Shown piece after piece: positions 46,999-64,000 of a DNA stretch of 64,000 bases. The DNA is from Octopus vulgaris (Eukaryota): NCBI GenBank assembly GCA_951406725.2, contig OX597827.1, forward strand, positions 7,068,001 through 7,132,000, read 5' to 3'. The position numbers and the translations under genes are program-made. How positions within the stretch are numbered: the stretch's first letter is position 1; each line of letters starts with the position of its first letter. The notes under the pieces were generated by a model. The model was not told where the DNA came from and ran no database searches. It saw only the letters and a program-made list of their open reading frames with translations.

Positions 46999-47287
46999 CA
47001 ACAGTTGTTTATTGTTTATATAGTTGTTGCTGTGCTGTTTCAGGGTTTTGGTAACAAAGTTATATCAGTAGCAGAAGTTCTGAGTAGTTTGGTATGTGAC
47101 AGTGTTATGTAGTTCTATGGAGTTGGTTGTGTAGTATGTAATGTGTGTTGTAGCCAATGACAAGCTGTCTTTTATTCCAATGCAAGGAAACGGAAATACA
47201 GCCTCCAGTTCTTGCAGTAAATGATGGGCTGACTCACAAAATATTTCACTTAGACACACTAATGTATTGATACATACATATACATGT
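46999..47287 (-). promoter_or_regulatory. Promoter block and non-coding first exon of gene 5 (GC donor)
   Basis: Core 47183-47250; donor reads TTG|gcaagt at 46999. Confidence 0.7.
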
Positions 47288-48039
47288 GTGTGATGAGAAG
47301 ATTTAAAATTGAGTGGACAAAATCTATAGAATATTTGAATCAATGACAGACATAAATATCACTTTTAAAAATGTATCATAATTTAATTTCAAGGTAGAAA
47401 AAGGATTTTATGACTTTTGCAAAAGTTGTAAAACTTTTTGGTGAAAATTCCTTTAGCTTTCCCTACTGCATTTCCAAACTTCTCCATTTGAAATGTCTAC
47501 CATAAAAGTTATTAAAAAGATTATTTTAAGCTACTAATTACTTTATAAAATGGAAGAGTGCATTTAATAATGCGAAACTGTGGCTCTAAATAATTATATT
47601 GTATAATATGATATATGTTGTGAAGTATTCTTAATAGAAAACCAATAGATTTAAAATATAATTAAATCTTTTTTAATTTTTGAATGTGAAATCTTACACA
47701 AATATACATAAAAGTTGTAGCTGTTGAACTGAAAACAAGACTGAATGCTTTTCTAATGCATTCATATAATTGTATTTGTCTTTGTCAACTAATAAATGTT
47801 ATTTATTGTTCAATTATCAATTAACCAATAATACAATATTGTATGTGAATTAGGTGTTTTAAAGAGTATTTCATTGAAAATTCCTATAAGTTACTCCTGA
47901 TATTTTAATCAGTTTGTTATCTTTTCATTATTTCTTAAAGACTAAATGAGGAGAAAATATCAACTTTGAAGAAGAATTTACTTTAAATTAGTAACATTAA
48001 GAAATGCTATGAAAATGTTACATATTAATTGTCTGGAAA

Positions 48040-48570
48040 CCATTCAGTGACGTACAGCCAAGAGAATACCCTCCATCAGGTATTTGCCATATTCTGAATG
48101 CCTTACTTCCCTGGGCATGGATACATTGAAACTCCAACGTCTAGCAGCTGACTTGGCAGACACCCATAAAATTATCAACCATCTTACAAACAATAACTCT
48201 GAGTACCTTTTCAAACTCCACCTGTCTAACACCTGTGGACATGTTTACAAAGTCAGAAAACAGCACAGCTCCCATGACTTTAGGAAACATTTTTTGACGC
48301 TAAGAGTTGCTGAAGCATGGAACAAACTGCCGGCATCAGTTGTTAGTTGTCGGAGCACTGCATCCTTCAAAACTTCCATGCTTCCTGAGATTCGCCAACA
48401 CTACACCTGATTTTCTCCCCTCCATACACACGCAAGCATGTATCTGGCTCATACACAGTTCACTTTCCAGACATTTGCACATTAATGCATATGCTTTATA
48501 TGCACTTGCTGACAAGTTGTGGTGCACCTGAATACTGTATACAATAATTTCATTATTATTATTTCATTAT
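48040..48570 (+). mobile_element. 3' fragment of a CR1-clade LINE (ORF2 C-terminus, 3' UTR, (ATT)n tail)
   Basis: Translation ...RLAADL...GHVYKV...FLTLRVAEAWNKLPASVV...SFK matches the CR1 ORF2 C-terminal conserved region; ends gtggtgcacctga...ttcattattatt. Confidence 0.85.
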
Positions 48571-48798
48571 TACATAATACATGAATTATAAGATTTGTGT
48601 GGTATTATTCACGTTGTCATGTCTTTCATAACTCGTACTGTATGGAGCTGCCACTTCTCAAAGGAACACTTTGCCATTGGATTTTAAACTTCGTTTAAAG
48701 TCTCAAAATAAAAGCAATACTAAGAAGATACAATTGGAATAATCTGCTGTAGCTGCTTAGCGAAAAACAGATTAGGTGACACTAATATCAGTTGAATA

Positions 48799-49198
48799 TC
48801 TTTATATATAAAAGTGAGGTTGTGTGCTGTCTGTCTCCTACGATTTAGATTCCTAACTACTCCCACATTTTTCGGTAGGGTTTAACCAAAACCGGGTATC
48901 TTATAGTCGTGATTCATATCGAGCCCTTCTGGGTATTAGCGCGCGTCTACAATGAGTCTACGATTTAAAAAAAAATTTACCATCATTTTTTTCCATTTTA
49001 ATGCATTTTTCGCTATTATATAAGGGAAGTAACTCTCTAAAAATGTCTACGATGAGTCAATGATTTTAAAAAAAGTTTACCATCATTTTTTTTCCATTTT
49101 TAATGCATTTTTTTGCTATTTTTTGGCTATAACTCTCTAAAAATGCTTATATAGTTATTTCCCTTACAAACTCGAGCAACGCCGGGCGATACTGCTAG
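48799..49198 (+). mobile_element. Non-autonomous Helitron (same family as 44905-45537)
   Basis: a|TC...hairpin...CTAG|t, 400 bp. Confidence 0.85.
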
Positions 49199-49651
49199 TT
49201 TACTAATAAATGATTTATACCTTGTAATTAACCTTGCATACAGTGCCCATGTGTAACTTTAATGCATCCACATGTCCAAGTATTAATTTGTTGGAAGAGA
49301 TATTACAAATATTCTTGTAGATTCTCTTAAGTAAAAGTATTTTTCGTCTCCAATAAACACAAGTTCCTTTCTTTCGTTTATCTTGAAATCCATAGAATCT
49401 AAGGGAGGTAACTAATGATCAAACAATTTCTTTTGCTTTGTAAAAAGCGAAACCCATCTGAAACGAAACGAGTTTCTTTCCATAGATGGAGGTTGGAGTT
49501 TCATGGAAAACTGACGGCTATTCACAGACCACATAGAATTAAAATGCTTTCACGAGTATAATTTCAGTTTGGTCATTAGAACTGACGCGGGAGCAGATGT
49601 TCTGTAACAACAACTACAATATTTTCATTAATATCTTAATGTTCTATATTT

Positions 49652-49653
<2 letters not shown>

Positions 49654-49692
<39 letters not shown>

Positions 49693-49930
49693 CATTGTGT
49701 ACAGTGCTCAGGTGCACTACAACTCATCTAAAGTGTATATATAATCAGGTGTAGTTTTGGTGGATTTCGGAAAGCATGAGGACCTTAAAGGATGCTGTGT
49801 CATGGCAGTCAACAACTGACGCAGGCAACTCTGAGCGTGAAAAAATGTTTCCGAAAGTCATGGGAGCTGTGTTGTTTTCTGACTTTGTAGGCATGTCCAC
49901 GTGTGTTGGACACATGGAGATCAAAAATTC
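49654..49930 (-). mobile_element. CR1 3' fragment with (AAT)n tail
   Basis: Reverse complement aligns to 48220-48560. Confidence 0.75.
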
Positions 49931-50029
49931 TTTGAATTGTTTCAGTCATTTGAAGGTTTTATTTTGTTGATAATGGTGGTGGTGGTGGTGAGGTTATGAT
50001 GATGATGATGATATTGATGATGATGTAAC

Positions 50030-50335
50030 TGGTTAGTGTATTTAGCTCACGATTGTAAGGTCATGAGTTTGGTTCCCAGGGGCACAGTGGCACATTGTGC
50101 CCTTCAGCAAAACACGTTATTTAATGTTGTTCCAGTCTTCTTATCTAGCAAAACTGAGTAGAACTTGTATTTCAAAAGGTCGGCCTTGTCACATTCCGAA
50201 TCTCCTTGAGAACCATATTAAGTGTGTGTGTGTGTCAGTGGAGTACTCAGCCACTTGCATGTTAATTTCATGATCAGGCTGTTCCTTGGATTGGATCAAT
50301 TGGAACCCTCATAATTTATAACAACAAAATGCCAG
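50030..50335 (+). mobile_element. Degenerate SINE, family D
   Basis: Shares ccttgtcaca and gtggagt.ctcagccacttgca.gttaatt blocks with 62581-62924. Confidence 0.6.
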
Positions 50336-50532
50336 TATATATTTTATACTGCAGCTGTTTAAAATCTTAAACACAGCTTATGGACAGGCCCCATACACCT
50401 TAGAGGTCCAAGGTCTCTAGTTGGGAATCATAAATGTATAGGCTCCCATGTTGGGTTGTTGTTGAATACCTCTTATAAGTTCTGTTTTGAGCAGATCATT
50501 GATAAGGAAAAAGTTGTGTGAAGTAATATATT

Positions 50533-50765
50533 TATTTCTTTATTGCCCACAAGGGGCTAAACATAGAGGGGACAAACGAGGACAGACAAAGGGATTAAGT
50601 CGATTACATCGACCCCAGTGTGTAAACTGGTACTTATTTAATCGACCCCGAAAGGATGAAATGCAAAGCCGACCTCGGCGGAATTTGAACTTAGAATGTA
50701 ACGGCAGACGAAACACTGCTAAGCATTTCGCCAGTCATGCTAACATTTCTGCCAGCTCACCACCT
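50533..50765 (-). mobile_element. SINE family C
   Basis: Aligns to 45825-46045. Confidence 0.85.
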
Positions 50766-50879
50766 TACCCTACAAGTAATATATTTACTAGCTCTGATAA
50801 TGATGATGAAAGACAATTCAGTATAATATGGTTCTGTATAATATAGTTTTTGGCTGAATATCTCTTCTTCATTATCATA

Positions 50880-51080
50880 TTAGTTTCAAATTTTGGCACA
50901 AGGTCAGCAGTTTTGAGGGAGAGGTCAAGTTGCATATATTGATCCCCAGTATTCAACTGGTACTTATTTTATCAACCCCAAAACGATGAAAGGCAAAGAT
51001 GACCTCAGCAGAATTTGAAGTCAGAACGTAAAGACAGACAAAATGCTGCTAAGCCCAATATACCAACAATTCTGCCAGCT
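50880..51080 (-). mobile_element. SINE family C variant
   Basis: Shared core with a ggcacaagg tail variant also seen at ~21745. Confidence 0.7.
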
Positions 51081-51986
51081 TACTGCTCTGTATTTCATTA
51101 TCATATAAGCCATAGCCATTCCATCTTCTGTGTGAGATATGCAATCCTTAGACAAAACATCTACGAACAAGTTATCTTAAAATTAAGTGTGCAGGTGAAA
51201 ATGTGTGCCATATTATTTTAAGCTGTTAGAACTGTTTATTGAATGAGATTCCACAGCTATTTTCAATTTTTTGCTGGTTCATAAAGAGCTGCTTCATCTT
51301 CTGTTGTTGCTGTGACTGCTGCTGTCACTGTTGGTACCTCTACCATCATCGTTCTTGCTCAGTCCTCGCCTCTGGCAGATTTATCTTCAAAGCATTCCAG
51401 CTGTAACCGCCCTGTCTTCTTTTCTCAAAACAAAGTGTATCTAGGATTATATTTTCTGATGTGCCTCTCCTTTTTGTTAGGGTTAAGTGAGACATCAAGG
51501 ATATTTAGCTGTTATTTATAGCTGAACAACTGACCACCATAAAGACTCACTTGTTTTTTTTTTATGCTACTATTTAACCCTAGGTTAACTATTGTCAAAG
51601 ACATTTCAGTTATGACCATTCTATCTTTTTTTTATGTTCAGGAAATCTAAGACTACTTTGGCAGGAATAAGCAACTTCTTCACATAATGGCCAAATTTTG
51701 ACTTTTTTTCACTTTTGCCAATGGCCCACATGTATTATATTATATCATATATTATCAGCCAGGTACCCTTCTATTCCCAGAGGTCAGCATGCCAAGACTC
51801 TCCAGCTGTGTAGTACTGCATGCGTACTATCAGCCAGGCTATGGTTTACAATCCATTCTTTGAAGTTGTCAGTTTACAAATGCTTTTGACTGCCTCTTAA
51901 TTTCTTCTCCACCACACTTCCGGTCAGAATGGTCTTGGGCAGTGACATCATACATTGTCTAAGTTTTTACCCCATAGAGGACAATT

Positions 51987-52041
<55 letters not shown>

Positions 52042-52143
52042 TCAGGGTAAATACTTGATAGTTGTAAGCACCTGTATATACCATTTAGTGGTGTAGGTGA
52101 TAGAGTATATTTATCAAAATAAAAACATGATGCAAAGGATTTA

Positions 52144-52230
52144 GTGGTACATATATTTCAGGCCTTTATTAGATGGTTTATTACAATGCATAATTGATGT
52201 AAATGTGTGTCTGTAGCCTTCTTCAGCCGC
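52144..52230 (-). ncRNA. Mirror copy of the hammerhead motif in the left arm
   Basis: CUGAAGA at 52226-52220, GAAA at 52159-52156, U-AUAU-G-UA. Confidence 0.55.
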
Positions 52231-52419
52231 ATACAATTACTACCTCAAGGACATGTATTACATTATAAGTTTTACGTTGGGGATGCAAATCCTCATAGTC
52301 GCAGGATGGATGCTCTGATTTTGTTCTGGTGCCTCGCTCTGTCGTACGCGACTATGAGGATATGCATCCCCAATGTAAAACTTATGATGTAATACATGTC
52401 CCTGAGGTAGTAATTGTAT

Positions 52420-52506
52420 GCGGCTGAAGAAGGCTATAGACACACATTTACATCAATTATGCATTGTTATAAACCGTCTAATAAAGGCCTGAAACATATG
52501 TACCAC
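52420..52506 (+). ncRNA. Minimal type I hammerhead ribozyme motif
   Basis: CUGAAGA 52424-52430, stem II AGGCU/GGCCU extended by UAGAC/GUCUA, GAAA 52491-52494, C-AUAU-G, GUA cleavage triplet; stem I GCGG/CCAC with one mismatch. Confidence 0.65.
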
Positions 52507-52536
52507 TAAATCCTTTGCATCATGTTTTTATTTTGA

Positions 52537-52567
<31 letters not shown>

Positions 52568-53223
52568 GGACAACTGGCATATCATATTTTGCATATTAAA
52601 AATATTCTCATGTATCCATCCCTGGCAATGCAAATGTGACCACAAAGAAAACAAATTGGGGACAAAAGACTATTCAAACCACCAAGATCAACAGGCACCA
52701 AAAAAGGTTTTTCTTTGTCCTGTCAAAAAGTGATTGATCATCTCCCTTTGACCTACGACCTCAGCCATGTCAGCAGAAGTTCGAATGGACAGCAGCTGAC
52801 CTAGTTAGGTACAAAATCTACTGGAGCATGTCTATCTTTCTAGCTGTTTTGGTTCTTATAAATACCAGGATTTTAGCAGAGACCAAACACAGATTTCCCA
52901 TGATGCAACAGAGAGAGTCTCCACATGCAAGAGGAGAAAAGTTATTGGAAGCAATAACCAAAAGACTGCTAGTCTACTTTCCGAGCTGAATGAACGCACA
53001 CACAGACACATAACAAAACATATTCAGTTCTAACGCACCACTTCTACAAATGTGACCCTTTTTATTTATTTAACAACTTGTAGCAATTGGAAACATTTAT
53101 ATGTAGTGGTGAAGTATATATACTAACAACACAATTTAAATCCAGTTAGTCCTAAAGCATAATGTTCCTAAAGGTTAGCAATGGTCTTCCTTGGTCACGA
53201 GTGGACAGCTATCATATATATAT

Positions 53224-53527
53224 ATATGAAAGAAAAAGGTGTTCAGAATGCTGGATGGGTGTATATAAAAATATATAATTATTTACATATCACATATTAT
53301 TTCTTCAAATCACATATTTAAGCGCTTTCAACCACTACTGTAGTTTCATCAGAAAACTACAGTAGTAGTTGAAAGCGCTTAAATATGTAATTAAATATGT
53401 GATTTGAAGAAATAATATGTGATATGTAAATAATTATATATATATTTTTTTATATACAACCATCCAGCATTCTGAACACCTTTTTCTTTCATATGTATTA
53501 AATCTGTACATCACCCCCAATACTTCA

Positions 53528-53530
<3 letters not shown>
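53224..53530. mobile_element. Palindromic element 2 (~125-bp arms, 7-nt spacer, 36-nt tail), probable Penelope-like remnant
   Basis: Arms 53224-53346 / 53354-53494, tail 53495-53530, (TA)n flanks. Confidence 0.7.
53316..53356 (-). ncRNA. Minimal hammerhead ribozyme motif at the palindrome centre, stem I truncated
   Basis: UUUU-CUGAUGA-AACUAC-agua-GUGGUU-GAAA-GCGC-UU-AAAU; palindromic stem III AAGCGCUU. Confidence 0.6.
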
Positions 53531-53577
<47 letters not shown>

Positions 53578-53656
53578 AATATAATTATTTAACCACTTAT
53601 ATATATATATCATCATCATATATATATATATATATATAAATATATAAATATATGTA

Positions 53657-53694
<38 letters not shown>

Positions 53695-53907
53695 GTGTAT
53701 ATTCTGTAAATAATAATAATATTTTATAAACTTAAAGCTTATGGGCGATCACTGTGCATTGACTAACGAAAATAGTCTAACACTGGGGCATATTACTTCT
53801 TGATGGCACAGCTTCTCAAATCATCAAAGAAAATGCAAATACTTGTTTGTTTAAAAATCAACACTATGAAATTATAGTTCTTAAATCTACCAGGAAGTAG
53901 TGAGTGG

Positions 53908-53976
53908 GTATGTTGGTGTAATAGTAGCACACCTATTGTGAATATATAGAGGTGTGGGTTTGAGTCCCATGCATAT
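53908..53976 (+). pseudogene. Degenerate tRNA-like sequence (tRNA pseudogene or SINE head)
   Basis: A-box-like tggtgtaatagt, T-arm gtggg-tttgagt-cccat, partial acceptor pairing; anticodon arm does not fold canonically. Confidence 0.35.
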
Positions 53977-54297
53977 GGAAAACTCACTTTTTTCCATCGA
54001 GGGCTTCTATGCCCCAATATTAGACTGTCCATACAAGGTGATTGCTTATAAGCTTTTAGCTTCTAAAATAATATTATCATTTACAAAGTTGTCACTCATC
54101 ACAACCTCTCATGTATATATACAATGGTCTTTTACACATATTTTATCTACCACACTTGCTCACAAGGCATTGGTCAGCCTGGAGCTTCAGCAGAAGAAAC
54201 TTGCCCAAAGTGCCACACAAGGGGGCTGAGCCCAAAACTTAGTGGTTACAAAGCTAGCTTCTTAACCACACAGCCTATTATTTATTTTTTTCAGCTA

Positions 54298-54449
54298 TAC
54301 CGTTACTTAGCGGTTCGGCAAAAGAGACCGATGGAATAAGTACTGGGCTTACAAAAGAATAAGTCCCGGGGTCGAGTTGCTCGATTAAAGGCGGTGCTCC
54401 AGCATGGCCGCAGTCAAATGACTGAAACAAGTAAAAGAGTAAAAGAGTA
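54298..54449 (+). mobile_element. 3' part of SINE family A, abutting an inverted older copy at ~54140-54275
   Basis: acttagcggttcggcaaaagagaccgat...gtaaaagagtaaaagag. Confidence 0.8.
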
Positions 54450-54972
54450 ATACCCAATCAAAAACTATATCATTCAATATGTCCTTCCTTCTTTTGTGGT
54501 GTTAGGATGCAATCTGAAGGGTAATTGGTTACTATTTTTAACAGACCAAATAACCACATACTGTTGTCCTTGTTGTCTTGTTAAAATACTGATTACTGAA
54601 GGCACTTCTGATGTCATTCTAAAACTAATTTACATTTATCATAATGATGCTTACATTTCTACTTTTGTAACATTTCCATTAACAATTGGAATTCATTAAA
54701 ATTGTGAGATCAATTAGTCAATCAGTCAATGAGACCAACACATAAAAATAATCAATAACGCAAAAAGTTTTCGTTTTGTTGAAATACTTTTAATGAAAAA
54801 TTTCTGTGTAAATTAATACAAAGTGAATACATTGTTTTAAATACATATACAAAAAAAAAGAAAAAAAGAAACAAACAAAAAGCATGTTTACTTCTTCTGT
54901 TATTTAATCTCGTTTTCAGTTTTTTTAATGATCTGATACAATTTAACATTTAAAAAAATAAATATATGTACT

Positions 54973-54976
<4 letters not shown>

Positions 54977-55044
<68 letters not shown>

Positions 55045-55320
55045 CATACCATATACATACACACATATTTATTTATATGTAAATATATGTATATATAAAT
55101 ATATATATATGTACATATATATATATATATATATATAAATATATATATATGTACATATATATATATATATATATAAATATATATATATGTACATATATAT
55201 ATACATATATATATATAATGCACACATAAACATATATATACACATGCATATATATATATATACATACAATGACACATACATGTACGTATATATACACATT
55301 TACATGTATATATCTATATA
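54977..55320. repeat. (TA)n-rich tract with a higher-order ~38-bp unit
   Basis: tataaatatatatatatgtacatatat repeated three times in 55090-55200. Confidence 0.9.
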
Positions 55321-56277
55321 TTTCACAAAATGTTTTATAAAGATGGAAAAAAAAAAATTATCAATATGCAACATGTGTGTTTATTTTTGTAACTACTTCA
55401 AAAAAATAATATTCAGTATGGAATTTAATTTGGATTTCATTATATTTCATTAGTCTAACATATTAGACCATAAAATCACACGCACTCACATGTATACATG
55501 CACGTACACACACACACACACACACGCGCGCGCGCTCACTCACACACCAACATTTATTATGACATACTACTGGCTAAGGTTTGTACAATCAATAGGTTTT
55601 CATCTATAAGTGACATTGGTATGGATTAAGTTTGTCTCTATTTGACATCACATAAAAAATAGTTAAGTTTCGGAACAGACAATTAGAAAAATATCAAAAA
55701 TCTTTAACTATTCACAAATTATCATGTGGCAAGGTAATGTATGAAATATTTATCACATCGGGATAGTAGCTCACTACTAAGACCCAACAGTTAAAAAAAA
55801 GAAAAAAAACAAAACATGAAGAACATGGATCGCACCGTCCCTCATCCCACCCCATGGCGACAGGGCATCCATTAATAACCCAATTAATATGTTAGTACTA
55901 GTCTACTGAACTTCAGACTTGGTTAGTTGCTGATTTCTTTTGATCTGGCCCAATCTTTGAAGAATTAGAAGATGCATGTAATTGAATCAAAGCTAGTATA
56001 TTGCTGGTACTATATTATAAATCCTGGCAAGCCATTTTTGGCAAGATTTCAACACAAAAATCATACGTACAAAATGAAATACTGTTAGGGATTAAATTCA
56101 GCATTTTACTTTGTCTGATGTTCTTAAATTGGGTTTATAGTGTTTTCTGGGTTTTCCAAAATGCGGCTATTGGAATGGTCAAATTTCTGCAAATGGTTCT
56201 CATAAAATGGATCTGTGTCATCAAGTAAAACATCATTGTTTGATATTGTATTCTTTTGAGGTTTTTGTTGTTTAGCT

Positions 56278-56398
56278 CAAGGTTAATCATGATCAAGTGG
56301 ACCTATGATCAAATAGACCCAGGTTAATGATAATGAAGTAGGCCTATCATCAGGTAGACCTAGGCTAATAAGGATCAAATAAGACCTCTGATCAAAGA
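56278..56398. repeat. Degenerate ~41-bp tandem repeat, 3 copies
   Basis: aggttaat.atgatcaagt.gacctatgatcaa.tagacc recurs at 56280, 56321, 56362. Confidence 0.6.
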
Positions 56399-56918
56399 TG
56401 TTTAACCTTGACCTTAACATTTTTCGTTTATTAGAATTATTTTTCTAAGACTACATTATTCAGTATTATTTTTCTTCTTTCAGGATAATAGAGCAACACT
56501 TCCCAACCAGAGTTTCCCAGTACCTTAGGTTTCCACAAGAGGTCACTAGGGTCTCCTCAAGAATTCATGATAAATAATAAATAGGCTAATTATATATAAA
56601 TATATTTTTCATGTTTAATTCTTATATCATAAGTTTATTATACATGAACAGAATTCTCTAATGTAAGGAAACCCTGCCATCGGCAAGTAGTAAGGAGGCC
56701 CAATAAGAAAAATAAGTAACCTTAGTGAGGATTGATGAGGAATCTGGTCTAAACAGGGTCTTAGTTAAGACAAAATTTCTAAAGCCTTTGTCACATCTGA
56801 TAGATTTAAGCAACCACACTTTTTAAAGCCAACTTTATGATTTGTTTCATCCCTTATGAAATTTAATTTTATGAAAAAGAAATAAAATGATTAATATATA
56901 TACATTAATATTTATATA

Positions 56919-57181
56919 TTACGGAGATGTACTCGCATAGCAAGTGATTTGATCTGAGATCGTGTGCTGGAACGAAAACAATTGCAGCGTGGAAGGTGTC
57001 TGTAAGCCATTTAAGAAACATACAAAAGCCGTTCGATTCACTTCAACATTTAAATTTAATTTAAACAGGTCGCGGATTTTAGCGACGAAAATATTTTGAC
57101 AAATTAAACTTAAATGTTGAAGTGAATTGAATGGCTTTTGCGTGTTTCTTAAATGGCTTACAAACACCTTCCACGCTGCAA
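56919..57181. mobile_element. Palindromic element 3 (81-bp arms, 38-nt spacer, ~63-nt tail)
   Basis: Arms 56982-57062 / 57101-57181; direct repeat aatatttatata at 56907-56918 and 57181-57192; spacer has stem GTCGC/GCGAC-GAAA-ATAT-TT. Confidence 0.7.
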
Positions 57182-58120
57182 ATATTTATATAAGTATAAT
57201 GATAGGAAATGCAGCAATAAAATGTAAATTTTAGGAAGATTTGGCTACTATTTCTAGGAAATTGAGTGACTTTGTGAAGGTTCTTTTCTTGTTGACAAGC
57301 TGTAGGAAAAGATTTAAGACTGGAAATGTATGGTCCCTTTTGCAGACATGTTATCATGCTTGTCAAAGCTGTTTTAGCAGAACAAAATCAAATAATGGCA
57401 TAAAAGTTAATAAATCCTATTGGAAATGTCTGCCTGAAAGTTCAGTTAAATTATATTTCAGCAGAAATCGCACCTTGCTCATCTGATCAAAACAACTTTT
57501 AATCAAATGAAACTGCAATATAGTAAAAACGATCTCTTCTGCCAGTAACTTAAGGCTCCATGCTGGCATTAAAAGATTATAATCACTGCAGAATCTGACA
57601 GATTACAAAATTATCTTATGGTGAACTTTATCACCTATCAGATCATAAAGGTACCACTACTAGATTCATCGTTTGATTTTATCCAGGGCAAATTAACTTG
57701 GCAGATTGCTTGGCTCAACCCAAGTTGTTATATATATATATATAGGACCTCATATAGGAAAAGTTGAATGAATATTAAAAGCTAAAAAGAAACACTTGTT
57801 AAGTTTGTATTACTGCTAGGTGTGAACTGAGCTGTTGAGGATGTTGAGAGTTAAGTCTCTTTGTACGGATACAATACTGTGCTAGAAGTGTTACAGGGGA
57901 CAGAGAAATATGGAGAAAGAAAGAGAGGATGATAGAAAGAATAAGAAAAAGACAGGGAAAAATAAAAAGGGGATAAAGAAAAAGCGAGGTTGAGCTGGGA
58001 GACAAATATGGAGAAAGGAAGAGAGAAAGAGTGAGAGGGAGAAGTAGGTATGAATAAAAAGGGGCCGATAGAATTACAAATAAGGAGAGATGTAGACAGA
58101 TACATACAAAACACACACAT

Positions 58121-58518
58121 ACTCTTTTACTTGTTTCAGTCATTTGACTGCAGCCATGCTGGAGCACCGCCTTTAATCGAGCAACTCGACCCCGGGACTT
58201 ATTCTTTCTGTAAGCCCAGTACTTATTCTATCGGTCTCTTTTGCCGAACCGCTAAGTAATGGGGACGTAAACACACCAGCATCGGTTGTCAAGCAATGCT
58301 AGGGGGACAAACACAGACACGTATACACACATATATATATATATACATATATACGACGGGCTTCTTTCAGTTTCCGTCTACCAAATCCACTCACAAGGCA
58401 TTGGTTGGCCTGAGGCTATAGTAGAAGACACTTGCCCAAGGTGCCACGCAGTGGGACTGAACCCGGAACCATGTGTTTGGTAAGCAAGCTACTTACCACA
58501 CAGCCACTCCTGCGCCTA
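58121..58518 (-). mobile_element. Full-length SINE family A
   Basis: Near-identical to 525-946. Confidence 0.88.
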
Positions 58519-58902
58519 TACACATATATATGTTTATGCATGCATACTTGAAACCATCCATCCATCCAGTCATCTGTCCGTCTGGTTGTCTGTCTGTTCA
58601 TCCATTCATCCATCCATGACGTTGGTCCTTTTTCTCTTCATTTGCAAAAGATCTACACTTTCTTTTTATTTGTAATTAATCAAGAATCTGAAAAGCTTTA
58701 GTAAACATAAACTAACTTATATTTTAAGCTGCTGTTAGGAACCTGAACAATTATCACTTTCGCATGAAATAACAATGGAAAGTTTTCAGTTGAAATATAA
58801 ACACCTTTAAAATGAAGTATTGTATCTTAGAACCAGAGGTGGTCACGGACGAGTTGGTATCGAAAGGATTATAAATACAGTAATGATAGAGATGGTATTG
58901 TT

Positions 58903-58992
58903 GTTGATGATGATGATGATGATGATGACGACAATTATGGTGACGATAATGTTGATGACAACAATGATGATGGTGATGATGATGATCATGAA
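58903..58992. repeat. Degenerate (GAT)n microsatellite
   Basis: Direct reading. Confidence 0.85.
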
Positions 58993-59175
58993 GATCGCAG
59001 TGATGACTGCTTAAACATTAATCTATTTCAGAAAAACTTTTCTAAAGAGCTTAAAAGATACAGAGGATGATGGAACAGTCATAGATCAATTGTGCAAAGT
59101 GTTATAAAGATGAAGTATATTTTCTTTAGAACTATGCTAAATATAAAATGAATTCAAAACAACATGTCTGAATTA

Positions 59176-59426
59176 TTTCGCTTTTTGGATTTAGTTTGCA
59201 AGATTCTTTTATATGAGTTCGTGAGTTGAAGTATATTCTGTTATGTCTGGGGAGAGTCATTTTCTTTTTGTGCCTTATAATGTAACATACTCACAGGTAA
59301 AATTTCCACTTATTTCTTATTTTTATTTTTATTATTATTTTAAAAAAAGAAAAAAAAGAAGAAAAAGTGGAAATTTTACATTATAAGGCAGAAAAAGAAA
59401 ATGATTCTCCCCAGACACAACAGAAT
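59176..59426. mobile_element. Palindromic element 4 (~70-85-bp arms, ~60-nt tail)
   Basis: Arms ~59235-59320 / 59356-59426; perfect 12-bp direct repeat atgtctgaatta at 59164-59175 and 59425-59436. Confidence 0.7.
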
Positions 59427-59592
59427 GTCTGAATTAGATATAAATTCTTGTTCCCCCCCGCTTTTTGTTTTATAGAACTTGATTTTACAATTTCATATAT
59501 TTTAGTCATTATATGGATCTTGTAATTTTAAACTTGCAGCACATTATTTTGAATCAGTTTTGATAACACTCAACAGAACTTTCATATTTTAT

Positions 59593-59975
59593 CGTTTACT
59601 TGTTTCAGTCATTAGACTGTGGCCATGCTTGAAGAAGTTTTTGTCAAATGAATTGACCCTAGTACTTATTTTTTGTTAAGCCTAGTACTTATTCTATCAG
59701 CCTCTTTTGCCGAACTGCTAAGTTACGGCAACATTAACATGCCAATAGCAGTAGTCAAGCAGTGGAGTGAGGACAAACACAGACACAATAAAACATACAC
59801 ATACGCATATATATATATGATGTGCTTCTTTCAGTTTCCATCTACCAAATCCACCCACAAGGCTTTGGTCGGCCCAAGGCTATAGTAGAAGGCACTTGCT
59901 GAAGGTGCCACGAAGTGGGACTGAACCAGGAACCATGTGGTTGAGAAGCAAGCTTCTTACCACATAGCCGTGCCT
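59593..59975 (-). mobile_element. SINE family A, diverged
   Basis: Collinear with 58121-58518. Confidence 0.8.
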
Positions 59976-61022
59976 GTGCCAATGAAATAGCAAAAGGCAC
60001 TTTTCTGTTTTCCCAAGAATGTAATGATTTTGGTGCTGTAAGTGGTTGAGGTGGAGGGGGATAAGAAGAAGCATGAGAAATAAATTCAGATGTACTGAGG
60101 TACGGAACAAAAGGAAAGATTTCTTCATTTTTATCTGGGATTAAGAAATACTTTCGCTTCTCCATTTAAAACAAAAAACAAAAAAGGAAATCATTAAAAT
60201 TTAGTTTTTTATGAATCAATGTACATTTGGTAGACAACAATGAACATTTATTATATGATTTTATGAAGTGATATATCAATAAAATTATGAGGACGGATGA
60301 TCTAAGACACTTGGTAAAATTTTCTTTTGGAATTCTATGAAGATTATGTAATTGCTTTACACTATAAAATTCCATTCATGGCATTCATGGGAACAGCGAT
60401 ATGAGAAGAGGACTGTCTTTGAAATAAAGTGATATCATACAAAAGAACTCACCAAAATATTACTATATTTGTTGGCATAGGAGGAAGCCTTTGACTTATT
60501 CCAGCAATGTAACCTCATGGTCGACTATATTTTACATGATGGGTCATGAAAATTTTCTGGAGTCTACCATAAAAGTATTAAAAAAAAACCACAAAAAAAA
60601 AACTAAAAAAAAAGAAAAGAAAAACCCGCAAAAAATGCTGTTTTGGTGTGTTTTAGCTACCAACAAATAGAATACTTTGAGGAAGTGGAGTATATGTGTA
60701 CGTGGACATATGTTTATGACCACAAGTATGTGTGTGTTGACAAATGCATGTATGACTACAAGCATGTGAGTGTATGTGTATGTGTGTGTATGCAGACATA
60801 TGTATATATGACCACAAATGTGCATGTGCATGTGTGATATGCATATGTATGTGTGGGTGTGGGTCATGTATTTATCCAAGCATGTGTTTCGGTATCTGTT
60901 AACCTGTGCCCAAACATGCTTCGTTTTTCTCATGAGAAATCTTATTATAAAAATATATTAATCATTTTCATAACATTGTGATGATGATTCATACACATAT
61001 AAACATTTTGGTGTAAAGTGAC

Positions 61023-61100
61023 CTTTTGTGAAATATCCATTAGTGGAATATCCTTTTGTGGAATATCCTTATGGAATATCCTTTAGTATAAATATCCTCT
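61023..61100. repeat. Minisatellite, ~16-bp unit gtggaatatccttt, about 5 copies
   Basis: Direct reading. Confidence 0.7.
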
Positions 61101-61161
61101 TGCAGTTAACTCTTCATATCTCCATATTAGTAAATTGCTTTTTGGAAAAAAGCAAACTTAT

Positions 61162-61412
61162 TCATGTCTTTGGTATTGGTGGTAATGGTCTAGAATAACA
61201 ATTAAAACTGTTTTTCATTGGTAAATTCCAAGGTTTCTGTGACAAGGGAGGGTCTGTTGGATTAATTCTTCCAAGTTTCAAATCAATGATATCAGCGGTA
61301 GATTGATTGGTAGATTGATTATTTACAAACGAGCAGCCCTCAGAAGAAACGTTGTCATTTTTTGGGTGTAAAGGTGGGTTAGACAACTTAATGTCTGATT
61401 CATCTCGACAGC
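61162..61412 (-). CDS. Terminal coding exon of a more distantly related protocadherin whose other exons are not in the window
   Basis: ttttctcag acceptor, phase-1 open frame (G)CRDESDIKLSNPP...PWNLPMKNSFNCYSRPLPPIPKT*; CR start and PM..(S/A)F...PLP.(I/V)PK end align with the array's terminal exons. Confidence 0.7.
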
Positions 61413-61634
61413 CTGAGAAAATATAAAGAAATGAATGTAAGGATAGAAAGAATAAAAAAATGTCTCATTAACCCTACACAATCAAGCCAATCATATGCAT
61501 GTGATATGTACATATGACCCTATATGACCTGACACAGATGCATATGCATAGATAAATACAAGGCCTGCACCCACACATACATATGCATATCACACATAGA
61601 CTGGTTTAGATGGTATAGGGTTAATTCATATCAC

Positions 61635-61636
<2 letters not shown>

Positions 61637-61700
<64 letters not shown>

Positions 61701-61908
61701 TAATAATAATAATAATAATGATGAAATTATTGTATACAGTGCTCAGGTGCACCACAACTTGTCAGAAAGTGCGTATAGAGTATATGCAGTAATGTACAAA
61801 TGTCTGGAAAATGAACAGTGTATGAGTCAAATACATGCTTGTGTGTGTATGGAGGGGAGACAATCGGGTGTAGTGTTGGCGAATCTCAGGAAGCATGGAA
61901 GTTTTGAA
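61637..61908 (-). mobile_element. CR1 3' fragment with long (AAT)n tail (short tails also at ~5506-5615, 45540-45590, 46245-46285)
   Basis: FKTSMLPEIRQHYT frame shared with 48084-48410; gtgctcaggtgcaccacaac terminus. Confidence 0.8.
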
Positions 61909-62400
61909 CCAGCACAGATATTCTATGCATTTTATGTTAAAACTTGCCAGATCCAGCCTCTCACACTTACCCAATGAAAATAAACAATGCCATCATCGAA
62001 ATCTCGAAGCTACAAGATATTTCATGACTTATTCAATGCAATGAGAATAAGTAATCTTTATATTTGTTAGAGTAATCTGAATGCTAAAAAAACGTAAGTC
62101 ATTAATTTTTGATTTTGTCTTTTTTATTTATATATTTTAGTCTGCAGGAAAGACTATGTCCATAACACCTTCTCTCCATTCACCCTTTCTGAGATAGGTA
62201 GAAGAGAAAGAGAGAAAGAGAGGGAGAGAGAGAGAGGGAGAGAGAGAGAGAGGAGAGAGGAACTGACTCTCAGCCTGGAGATCTGGTCTGAGTGCTTGTA
62301 ACAGAGTGGGTTCTGCTAAAGACATTCTGATCGGGCAAACTTGTGATTGTAGACTGATTTGGCTGCTATTTCTGTTAGCAGAACTGAAAGAGTATTATGT

Positions 62401-63035
62401 TTGTTCCTTCTCAAGCCACGCCTGGCTCATAAGGGCTGGTTTCTCAGTTTGCTTGGATGGGACACTGGTCTGTCACAGGTGGGCTGCAAGATGCAGGAGG
62501 AAAGTGTGAGAGAAAGTTGTGGCGAAAGAGTCAGCAGAAGTTTGCCATTACCTTCTGCTGGAGTCATATGGAGCTTAGGTCGTAGGATCGCGGTTTCGAT
62601 TCCCAGACCGGGCATTGTGAGTGTTTATTGAGCGAAAACACCTAAAGCTTCCCGAGGCTCCTGCAGGGGGTGGTGGTGAACCCTGCTGTACTCTTTCACC
62701 ACAACTTTCTCTCACTCTTACTTCCTGTTTCTGTTGTACCTGTATTTCAAAGGGCCAGCCTTGTCACACTCTGTGTCATGCTGAATTTCCTCGAGAACTA
62801 CATTAAGGGTACACGTGTCTGTGGAGTGCTCAGCCACTTGCACGTTAATTCCACGAGCAAGCTGTTCCGTTGATCGTATCAGCTGGGATCCTCATTGTCG
62901 TAACTGACGGAGAGCTCCTACAAAATGGAGCTTAGGTATTTCGCTCATAAACACACATCACCTGGTCTGAGATTCAAACCTGCAATCCCTCGACCGTGTG
63001 TCCGCTGCTCTAACCACTAGGCCATGTGCCTCTAC
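62401..63035 (-). mobile_element. SINE family B interrupted by a nested SINE
   Basis: Head at 62938-63035 and body at 62401-62580 align to 18858-19162. Confidence 0.8.
62581..62924 (+). mobile_element. 5'-truncated SINE family D nested in the family B copy
   Basis: B-box ggtttcgattccc; 13-bp TSD atggagcttaggt at 62568-62580 and 62925-62937. Confidence 0.85.
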
Positions 63036-63111
63036 AACAGGGTGTTACCCATGTCTGTAACTGCTCGTGGTTACATTGGTACCTGATATAACTAGAGTGC
63101 ACTAAGATAGT

Positions 63112-63305
63112 ATGCTGGCAGAATCGTTACAGCGCTAGACAAAATGCTTTGTGGCATTTCTTCTTACTTTACAAGTGTCACTAGGATCGAGTTTGCCTCT
63201 CATAATTTGAGAGTCGATAAAAAAGTACCAGCTGAGCACTGGGGTCAAGGCAATCGATTTACTCCTCCCCCAAAATTGATGGCCTTCTGTCAAAATCTGA
63301 ACACC
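63112..63305 (+). mobile_element. SINE family C, diverged
   Basis: gctggcagaatcgtta head and gataaaaaagtaccag.tgagcactggggtc core. Confidence 0.65.
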
Positions 63306-63866
63306 AGTATAACTAGAGTGCTTAGTGCTTGCTTTCAAGTCATACTTGGCTGTAATGATATCATATCTTTCCAGTTATTTGCACAATATTTTATGTACTT
63401 TGTATTATTTCCTCAAATCATTGTAACATGAAAGAGAATGCAATAATGGGCAGGTAACTCATTGTTTGGAGTGCTAAACTGTCATAGACAAAAGATTCCC
63501 AAGGATTCCCCATTCACTTTGGTTTCTCTTGTTAAATCAAATCCTGTGTGTACAGTTAAAGCATTTCCGTAGACTCTGTTTGAATTTTTAGTCTTTTGGC
63601 AAATTTTCTACTGACTCCAGTCTCATATCTGGCATTGGTGAATATATTCCAGTCATTCTATTCCCACTGAATAAAGCAGGTAAGGGCAACCTTTCTCATG
63701 CAGCCCGCTGCCTGAGACTTGACCCATCATCAGGCAGGCTGCACAACCAAAAAATTTAAGGTAATTTTTCCTTATGCATGCTACCCAGAAAGTCCCATGA
63801 AAAAAAGAAACAAACAAAAAAGAAAAGAAACAAAAAAGACCCTTGGTATATGGCTACAGTCTAATG

Positions 63867-64000
63867 CAGTGCTTTTCAACCTTTTTACTGGAGCGGAACC
63901 CCAAGAAAACATTTCACTGGCTCGAGGAACCCCTGTGCAATAATTTAATTGTCTTATGCACACATATCTGCACAGGAGAATTAAAAATTACTGTCGATTT
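63867..64000. mobile_element. Left end of a probable hAT-type MITE running off the window
   Basis: Terminus CAGTGCTTTTCAACCTTTT..GCGGAACCCC resembles hAT/Charlie ends; partner TIR not visible. Confidence 0.5.

Follow-up and report, generated by a model that had tools for sequence, protein, structure and literature searches.

Published insertions of Penelope-like elements (PLEs) begin with an inverted, 5'-truncated copy, have a tail at just one of their ends and target-site duplications (TSDs) of 8-10 bp, and include the first 12 (with the tail 22) codons of the ORF. At AT-rich DNA, the element PAc cuts both strands and extends them, reverse transcription starting at two internal sites which delimit the tail. 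The four palindromes E1-E4 in the 64-kb stretch of octopus DNA analyzed here, hereafter the window, resemble the 5'-truncated insertion units of EN+ PLEs (Arkhipova et al. 2013, PMC3846280; Craig et al. 2021, PMC8557442; Frangieh et al. 2024, PMC11167929) in the head-to-head inverted copy, the one-sided tail, the flanking duplication, the AT-rich or (TA)n target, the ORF start in pLTR plus tail and the hammerhead upstream of the ends. They differ in that each of the two copies is a stump 80-200 nt long, that tails measure 59-69 nt as opposed to the published 30-40 nt, and that repeats are 12-15 bp long as opposed to the cited 8-10 bp. The arrangement has already been described for PLEs, of which the four are likely to be short, dead copies; as the insertion architecture is textbook, the cluster itself is ordinary. 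Among PLE families of the same genus, Naiad_Obim, Naiad_Ovul, Naiad_Omin and Hydra-1_Obim (PMC8557442) share the (TA)n targets of E1 and E2, and Naiad_Ovul was flagged for widely spaced half cores, reminiscent of the long spacer in E1. The Hydra-1_oBim hammerhead has a C3-G8 core and is unlike those of E1-E3. None of seven short DNA motifs from E1-E4 was found in the supplement of PMC8557442, where line breaks or strand can hide matches.

We consider it very probable that the four palindromes arose by separate insertions, all strongly 5'-truncated, from four different PLE families, one of which, the E3 family, carries a predicted hammerhead with a G3-C8 core that would likely cut slowly.

Anatomy of the four palindromes

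The sequence-only reading had described four inverted-repeat elements within 7.5 kb. All four were re-found (Table 1), with arms diverged by 4.6% (E1), 2.4% (E2), 7.4% (E3) and 8.4% (E4), and the palindromes are therefore not artefacts of chimeric reads. That they are unrelated in sequence also held true: neither among themselves nor elsewhere in the window did E1-E4 yield matches beyond AT-rich low-complexity sequence. A likeness between the E3 and E4 peptides proved not significant, as 52 of 300 shuffles reached the best score of the pair; the lowest count for any of the six peptide pairs was 14 of 300, and the description as unrelated is therefore kept.

One-sided tails comprise 69 nt in E1, 63 nt in E3 and 59 nt in E4, so that the earlier claim of a 36-75 nt tail applies to these three, but not to E2, where none can be delimited. 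Likewise, direct repeats of 12-15 bp, correctly noted before in three cases, flank E1 (15 bp), E3 (12 bp) and E4 (12 bp) at AT-rich sites, while E2 shows only (TA)n matches and no defined TSD. The repeats of E1 (51979/52568, one mismatch) lie outside the (TA)n tracts. An exact flush repeat of at least 10-12 bp was obtained in a fraction of 0.00025 of 20000 random placements. Judged by the orientation of motif or tail, E1-E4 are all head-to-head. The sequence-only reading had the tail extend the 3' end of the ribozyme-sense strand in three elements; in E1 the tail continues the minus-strand copy only, and the half-core of E3 resides on the tail-less copy. ARAGORN detected no tRNA.

Table 1 Positions of the parts of E1-E4 in the window
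Feature	Position	Strand	Remark
E1 inverted-repeat arms	52106-52302/52348-52544		
E1 left direct repeat	51979..51993	+	likely target duplication, into (TA)n 51990-52036
E1 tail, 69 nt	52037..52105	-	3' extension of minus-strand copy only
E1 tail-bearing arm	52106..52302	-	hammerhead copy ~52144-52230, one change disrupts the loop III palindrome
E1 centre spacer, 45 nt	52303..52347	.	
E1 tail-less inverted arm	52348..52544	+	type I hammerhead 52420-52506
E1 right direct repeat	52568..52582	+	1 mismatch, behind (TA)14 at 52540-52567
E2 inverted-repeat arms	53220-53346/53354-53498		
E2 left arm and 7-nt spacer	53220..53353	-	minimal hammerhead ~53316-53353
E2 inverted arm	53354..53498	+	starts at core position 9; 12-nt and 6-nt insertions relative to left arm
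E3 inverted-repeat arms	56976-57062/57101-57187		
E3 left direct repeat, 12 bp	56907..56918	+	flush with tailed end of family
E3 tail, 63 nt	56919..56981	-	other copies end at 56918, unlike flanks
E3 frame from ATG across arm end and tail	56919..57010	-	28/31 identical to XP_029654200.2
E3 tail-bearing arm	56982..57062	-	5' end 4 nt downstream of predicted cut site
E3 truncated hammerhead	57064..57103	+	core positions 6-9 onward
E3 tail-less inverted arm	57101..57181	+	other copies also end at 57181, unlike flanks
E3 right direct repeat, 12 bp	57181..57192	+	
E4 inverted-repeat arms	59235-59333/59344-59426		
E4 left direct repeat, 12 bp	59164..59175	+	
E4 tail, 59 nt	59176..59234	-	ATG-initiated frame 59260 to 59176 crosses tail
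E4 tail-bearing arm	59235..59333	-	window copy without hammerhead
E4 tail-less inverted arm	59344..59426	+	without 15-nt stretch of left arm
E4 right direct repeat, 12 bp	59425..59436	+	

Hammerhead motifs and the G3-C8 core of the E3 family

Two full minimal-hammerhead matches were found in the window, in E1 (+52424) and E2 (-53352), compared with an expectation of 0.04 per 64 kb from 100 shuffles, and the sole 3' half-core (expectation 0.05 per 64 kb) lies in E3 (+57087). All three reside inside the palindromes and point from the centre outward. The descriptor had been loosened after a stricter version gave no match, and the shuffle null is therefore somewhat flattering. The two full cores and one partial core of the sequence-only reading are thus recovered by our own descriptor, though none of the 57 Rfam matches at E<=5 was to a hammerhead family. 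In E1, C3 (52424) is part of a C3-G8 core, three of four pairs form in stem I, cleavage is predicted after 52502, and stem II, beginning with A-U, encloses about 50 nt in a long loop II. E2, with C3 at 53352, combines C3-G8 with a 6-bp stem II beginning with A-U and a palindromic GCGC; the 5' strand of its stem I retains one native base only, the rest of the apparent strand being the inverted copy. The window copy of E4 has no hammerhead. In the window copy of E3, core positions 6-9 with C at position 8 (57066) are followed by a bulged G, a 5-bp stem II starting with G-C, GAAA, a palindromic AUAU, UU and the 3' strand of stem I.

What is missing at E3 is supplied by other copies of the family, which provide the 5' strand of stem I and G3-U4-G5. 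In seven of the seven listed rows of loose ends upstream of 57064, 57080 and 57081, with 857 further rows in existence, the complement of the window's 3' stem I strand precedes G3-U4-G5 (contig set X5: 42, 7 and 98 contigs; X15: 30 and 69; X1: 3 and 7; agreement 0.69-0.85). The 7-bp stem I match alone has a chance probability of 1.2e-4. Contigs of the family accordingly read a complete minimal type I hammerhead with up to 7 bp in stem I, 5 bp in stem II and AUAU in the stem III region, in which G3-C8 replaces C3-G8: the canonical identity is lost and the Watson-Crick pair between positions 3 and 8 is kept. With the metazoan PLE minimal type I hammerheads (Cervera and de la Pena 2014, PMC4209133) the family shares a bulged base after A9, G10.1-C11.1, the 5-bp stem II, a palindromic segment for stem III and the UH site. 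E2 follows the same plan without the bulge and E1 differs by its loop II of about 50 nt; in neither is there the G10.1-C11.1 pair that PLE hammerheads typically have.

The 56 motifs in Fig. S3 of PMC4209133 comprise 53 with C3-G8, two with U3-A8, one with U3.G8 and none with G3-C8. Natural U3-A8 variants (Perreault et al. 2011, PMC3088659; Schistosoma Cercyon PLEs) likewise covary at the Watson-Crick pair, of which E3 would represent the G3-C8 reversal; in a PLE hammerhead, cleavage is restored in part by the double mutation C3G/G8C; and in the portion of the literature covered, G3-C8 was found in this engineered mutant only and in no natural hammerhead. New here, then, would be an abundant repeat family with a predicted hammerhead of swapped core. 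A natural G3-C8 hammerhead shared by two organisms would add to the core variants known from nature, and, if the reading is true, such cores would be invisible to CUGANGA-based searches and standard descriptors would miss whole PLE families.

The swapped motif might also be a hammerhead-derived protein-binding or structural element which no longer cuts, G3-C8 being tolerated because cleavage is dispensable. We regard this as possible, though not as the favoured reading; it would fit a PLE origin as well. PAc elements with a mutated hammerhead remain able to insert in vitro, RNA-seq reads ending at the PAc cut site were not seen, PLE minimal hammerheads cut poorly, and Naiads without canonical hammerheads still reach high copy number. 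On the other hand, both partners of the 3-8 pair changed together and all other core positions were kept, which suggests that, at least at the time of the swap, selection acted on an active fold. In the preferred reading, the predicted G3-C8 hammerhead would likely cut slowly, as a dimer or with the help of a protein. The E3 family would be a natural system in which to ask whether cutting is required of PLE hammerheads.

Abundance, ends and reading frame of the E3 family

The E3 family is very abundant in two organisms, with 13937 contigs in set X5 and 9446 in set X15. Summed depth over 56920-57169 amounts to 0.96-2.6 million in these sets, as compared to 49 (X5) and 9.4 (X15) on the single contig of the right flank; depth itself is no copy number, and our rough estimate puts the number of copies between the thousands and the tens of thousands (1.6e3-5e4). 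The check on arm copy number proposed in the sequence-only reading, made for E3 in X5, X15 and X1, thus points to abundance, though raw WGS run X21, which carries the same species label as X1, gave only two E3 reads from 1934 million letters. This scarcity is not predicted by high abundance, and we have no explanation for it. Two DNA-pattern matches, one in viral contigs and one in metagenomes, were isolated and short, in phage-like DNA without further likeness, and are attributed to chance; prokaryote genomes and an earlier scan of viral contigs gave none.

The family has two fixed 3' ends, 56918 and 57181, and at both the 12-bp repeat is flush with the end. Loose ends whose flanks are unlike one another were seen at 56918 in 42 contigs of X5 and 47 of X15 and at 57181 in 38 contigs of X15 (agreement 0.47 in each case). 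Past both inner ends, other copies read on non-palindromically, and opposite-strand joints occur at other positions, so that the mirror image is specific to the individual copy. Among the 15 of 49 joints listed, no empty allele was seen.

The E3 peptide is identical in 28 of 31 positions to residues 1-31 of Octopus sinensis XP_029654200.2. Its ATG precedes the tail-less end by 29 nt and the tail end by 92 nt; beyond the tail end the Octopus sinensis gene model continues. The sequence-only reading had taken the families to be non-coding; for E3 this is doubtful, the tail being the start of a longer frame in XP_029654200.2. Residues 32-222 may resemble PLE N-termini, and the longer ORF may encode a PLE polyprotein. 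Residues 32-222 could, however, come from elsewhere: the C-terminal part of the protein is a methyltransferase, and the gene model is therefore probably chimeric. The link to RT and GIY-YIG that had been envisaged was not reached for E3, as none of 563 candidates among proteins of 570-2000 aa matched residues 1-222 at E<=0.001. The same residues belong to no Pfam or NCBIfam family, the N-terminal part has no PDB match by sequence or fold (model pLDDT 47.8), and ESM Atlas searches gave best scores of 0.76 and 0.78 and no lead. Protein P0002 had no match in viral contigs.

Abundance without an RT-bearing relative would also be expected if the four were non-autonomous, SINE-like or retrozyme-like short elements, mobilised by PLEs and with no more than the pLTR module from the outset. 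Non-autonomous PLE derivatives have been described, and E1, E2 and E4 may be of this kind; the E1 and E4 peptides lack a true homologue: no candidate was found for E4, and the sole match of E1, P0001, was rejected as a tandem-repeat ORF whose score is a sum of weak repeats. We nevertheless find this improbable, since the E3 frame runs past the tail end in XP_029654200.2 and none of the 19 TRF rows for 47000-64000 reveals tandem hammerhead units of 170-400 nt; non-LTR retrozymes form tandem units with a canonical type I hammerhead. The insertion mechanism implied is the same as for truncated PLEs.

Proposed origin and genomic setting

In the preferred reading, that of truncated PLE insertions, each palindrome would combine two cDNAs, a short one that covers the pLTR end and its tail and another that lacks the tail, joined head-to-head within a staggered cut in AT-rich DNA. 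Both target strands may have primed reverse transcription, which would have begun at two internal sites of the RNA, as for anole PAc in vitro, and the flanking repeat would be the target duplication. The PLE ancestry assumed in the sequence-only reading is well supported for E3, to judge from family ends flush with the repeat, the copy-specific inversion, the hammerhead in copies and the ORF start. For E1 and E2 it is supported by motif and anatomy only, for E4 by anatomy only. Most likely, the stumps are inert passengers, and their only effect is likely to be the formation of ADAR-type hairpins if read through.

That the hairpins are instead selected and regulate or edit protocadherin transcripts seems very unlikely to us, and no tie between the elements and the protocadherins emerged. 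The protocadherin ORF closest to the cluster ends at a distance of 7.3 kb, such palindromes are absent from all five units of the array, and the arms have decayed by 2-8%. The earlier statement that elements were concentrated at the edge of a protocadherin array receives little backing: clustering over the whole window (P=0.006) becomes marginal (P=0.039-0.048, post hoc) on non-redundant sequence, tandem duplicates making up 40059 of 64000 bases. The potential for long dsRNA claimed in the event of transcription is real, with stable predicted hairpins of -94 to -329 kcal/mol. Four contig sets guessed to be RNA contain 0.83-0.84 of the sampled words of 55600-59560. Porath et al. 2017 reported exceptionally high dsRNA potential and hyper-editing for octopus, which was left out of their repeat analysis; head-to-head PLE stumps are a candidate source. 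That an active natural G3-C8 hammerhead exists in an abundant octopus PLE family and such stumps are a main source of the genome's high hairpin content and hyper-editing is a tentative and rather unlikely extension. A hint of editing in X1, where A>G at 56981 accounts for 47% of depth (0.1% in X5) and T>C at 57012 for 18% (0.7%), in a family-wide comparison of 17 positions with another sample, RNA by guess, was not accepted because C>T at 56988 also reaches 45% (8% in X5).

TIR DNA transposons and MITEs have inverted repeats at both termini and a fixed short TSD of 2-10 bp. Palindromic DNA transposons of MITE, foldback or Harbinger-like type with hammerhead matches by chance, which would be short and flanked by direct repeats as here and have a counterpart in the ~200 bp palindromic Harbinger repeats of frog, are the least credible source and for E3 largely refuted, since the inverted repeat stops short of the one-sided tailed end, TSDs measure 12, 12 and 15 bp, the E3 family is non-palindromic past the centre with variable inversion points, and three motif matches stand against ~0.05 expected.

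Palindrome anatomy and predicted hairpins

Self-BLAST of the window returned eight local inverted matches, four of which are the palindromic insertions E1 to E4 between 51979 and 59436; the rest comprise tracts rich in (TA) and a further two pairs, both weak, of 72-80%. No DNA similarity among the four elements was found by window self-BLAST and no significant peptide similarity by pairwise peptide comparison, in agreement with the sequence-only reading, which had described them as mutually unrelated. The flanking direct repeats of 12-15 bp that it had reported for three elements were also recovered, the E1 repeat lying outside the (TA)n tracts, while an exact flush repeat arose by chance at a frequency of 0.00025 in 20000 trials. 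No flanking direct repeat was found for E2. A one-sided tail had been claimed for all four, which holds for E1, E3 and E4 and fails for E2, where none is definable. The four palindromes are real. The divergence between arms speaks against chimeric assembly; provided that the arms of each element started out identical, it also favours four insertion events of different age.

Anatomy and predicted folding of the palindromic insertions
Element	Arms	Arm divergence	Flanking direct repeat	Tail	Predicted hairpin energy (kcal/mol)	Longest perfect paired run
E1	52106-52302 / 52348-52544	4.6%	15 bp, 1 mismatch	69 nt	-328.8	42 bp
E2	53220-53346 / 53354-53498	2.4%			-175.0	50 bp
E3	56976-57062 / 57101-57187; without flanking repeat 56982-57062 / 57101-57181	7.4%	12 bp	63 nt	-126.1	20 bp
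E4	59235-59333 / 59344-59426	8.4%	12 bp	59 nt	-93.6	15 bp

All four hairpins are predicted to be stable, and the long dsRNA potential proposed earlier is thus upheld as a predicted fold. Exceptional dsRNA potential and hyper-editing have been described for octopus by Porath et al. 2017, where octopus is omitted from the repeat analysis. To the left of E1 and of E2 (51976-52003 and 53200-53227), (TA)n is immediately preceded by a short stretch containing GC that is similar in the two flanks; it may reflect a common target preference or be another small repeat.

The E3 family in public sequencing runs

The stretch 56320-57819 was compared, at a likeness of 80, with the public sequencing runs X5, X15, X1 and X21. 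Matching contigs numbered 13937 in X5 (DNA by guess, organism A), 9446 in X15 (organism B) and 497 in X1 (RNA only by guess). In X5 and X15, summed depth over 56920-57169 amounted to 0.96-2.6 million, against 49 and 9.4, respectively, for a single contig of the right flank; summed depth is itself no copy number, for which the rough bounds are 1.6e3-5e4. X21, raw WGS with the species label of X1, counts against this abundance, as 1934 million letters contained only two matching reads versus thousands of contigs in the contig runs.

Among the rows listed, family copies stop at 56918, in 42 X5 contigs and 47 X15 contigs, and at 57181, in 38 X15 contigs, giving way to unlike, AT-rich flanks (agreement 0.47 at either end), and both ends coincide exactly with the 12-bp repeat. 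The copies run on past both inner ends, and the opposite-strand joints listed for other copies lie elsewhere (56978-57035, 56982-57179 and 56999-57147); the E3 palindrome was therefore built per insertion. Its right junction is confirmed by one X5 contig spanning 57160-57802 with one difference. On the left, coverage of the flank is interrupted in every run, and no empty allele occurs among the 15/49 joints listed. At 56280-56396 lies a tandem repeat with a 41-nt unit, present in 2.8 copies and decayed. A>G at 56981 and T>C at 57012 are much commoner in X1 than in the DNA contigs, a weak lead towards editing of E3 family transcripts, but C>T at 56988 behaves alike.

On the minus strand, an E3 frame running from 57010 to 56915 is identical at 28 of 31 positions to residues 1-31 of the Octopus sinensis gene model XP_029654200.2, which extends beyond the E3 tail end. 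Because residues 243-310 are a methyltransferase, the model is probably chimeric, with an E3-family ORF start (1 to ~222) joined to that domain, and its first part is possibly a retroelement-derived 5' exon. Residues 32-222 may resemble PLE N-termini. No RT-bearing relative was found among 563 candidates, PDB, fold and ESM Atlas searches were blank, and neither RT nor GIY-YIG could be linked to E3. The E3 ATG lies 56 nt past the predicted ribozyme cut; from it, 29 nt remain to the end that lacks the tail and 92 nt to the tailed one, a placement like that in rotifer Pen2a, whose pLTR holds 12 codons, or 22 with the tail (PMC3846280).

Hammerhead motifs and the G3-C8 core

Both strands of the 64 kb were scanned for hammerhead structures with all four Watson-Crick 3-8 pairs allowed, using a relaxed descriptor after a stricter one had matched nothing. 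Full matches were obtained at +52424 (E1) and -53352 (E2), the expectation per 64 kb being 0.04 with the canonical core and 0.23 when all four are counted, and one 3' half-core at +57087 (E3; 0.05 expected), so that the two full cores and one partial core noticed earlier are borne out. An Rfam search of the window gave no hammerhead family. Since all motifs in E1-E3 read from the centre outward, the arms are head-to-head. In the E1 motif, loop II is long, at about 50 nt, and stem I forms three of four pairs; precedents for long loops and for an A-U first pair exist among PLE hammerheads elsewhere (PMC8557442, in part). In E2 the longer copy begins one base ahead of C3 and the inverted copy at A9, and in E3 the tail-less copy begins at core position 6 and the tailed copy 4 nt past the predicted cut. 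Two of the four elements are therefore truncated at or within the ribozyme.

Other E3 copies supply the remainder of the core. Upstream of 57064, 57080 and 57081, all seven loose-end rows among those listed (42, 7 and 98 contigs in X5, 30 and 69 in X15, 3 and 7 in X1; agreement 0.69-0.85) carry the 3' stem I complement followed by G3-U4-G5. This upstream sequence pairs with window 57097-57103, the 3' stem I strand, and G3-U4-G5 joins window A6-A7-C8-A9; the chance of the 7-bp complement alone is 1.2e-4. At 57066, C is the majority letter, with T in one X5 contig (depth 203.5/706.8). The putative family motif comprises a stem I of at most 7 bp, G3-C8, a bulged G, G10.1-C11.1, a 5-bp stem II, GAAA, a palindromic AUAU and UU, and agrees with the PLE minimal-hammerhead consensus (PMC4209133) except for the reversed 3-8 pair.

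U3-A8 is on record as a natural 3-8 covariation (PMC3088659, in part), and in the hammerhead of PAc, an anole PLE, C3G/G8C partly restores cleavage (PMC11167929, in part). In the available portions of the sources, G3-C8 is absent from 56/56 motifs in Fig. S3 of Cervera (PMC4209133) and from 34/34 rows in File S2 of Craig (PMC8557442). A partial literature survey for a natural G3-C8 hammerhead gave lab-mutant passages or nothing, and an earlier report is possible; titles and abstract starts of the listed papers on octopus and hammerhead ribozymes held nothing on the E3 motif. At the level of sequence, only the G3-C8 hammerhead motif of the abundant E3 family is new.

Origin of the insertions and their locus

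The architecture of E1-E4 is ordinary and already on record for PLE insertions (PMC3846280 and PMC8557442). That all four are PLE stumps is the best explanation and probably correct, with confidence higher for E3 and lowest for E4: the PLE origin proposed earlier is favoured by anatomy, hammerheads, E3 family ends and ORF start, and the missing RT-bearing relative speaks against it. According to PMC11167929, both strands of AT-rich DNA are cleaved by the PAc protein, and reverse transcription begins at two internal RNA sites, the interval between which is the tail; the hammerhead requires protein and is dispensable for insertion. By analogy, each target strand would prime one cDNA, one starting at the distal RNA site and carrying the tail, the other starting at the proximal site and lacking it. 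Both would halt early and be joined head-to-head, fill-in would yield the 12-15 bp repeat, and (TA)n would expand at the E1 ends. A published alternative is inversion by self-priming on an antisense template (PMC3846280, in part).

Five minus-strand ORFs of 811-823 aa at 6283-44681 are presumably protocadherins, judged from their cadherin repeats. They form near-identical tandem units of ~9 kb; their C-terminal halves hardly differ, whereas the N-terminal parts vary more, which suggests recent duplication or conversion. Direct self-matches of at least 600 bp cover 40059 of the 64000 bases. A distance of 7.3 kb separates the PLE-like cluster from the last ORF, on the 5' side of that ORF, and window self-BLAST placed no E1-E4-type element in any array unit. 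Its supposed concentration at the array edge is backed by P=0.006 for four points falling within 7.5 kb when the whole window is counted, but weakens to 0.039-0.048, post hoc, in non-redundant sequence.

Other repeats occur nearby. A GC-richer 71-bp inverted repeat (62494-62727; 80% identity, 94-nt spacer) is unlike E1-E4 and gave no match in the hammerhead scan. A weak tRNA-like Rfam match (53907-53978; 25.7 bits, below threshold) falls within a 72% inverted pair at 53705-54085, possibly another tRNA-derived SINE. A dispersed SINE-like repeat with about ten matches in the window forms an 88-nt inverted pair of 99% complementarity, 3.7 kb apart (54354-54441 and 58120-58207).
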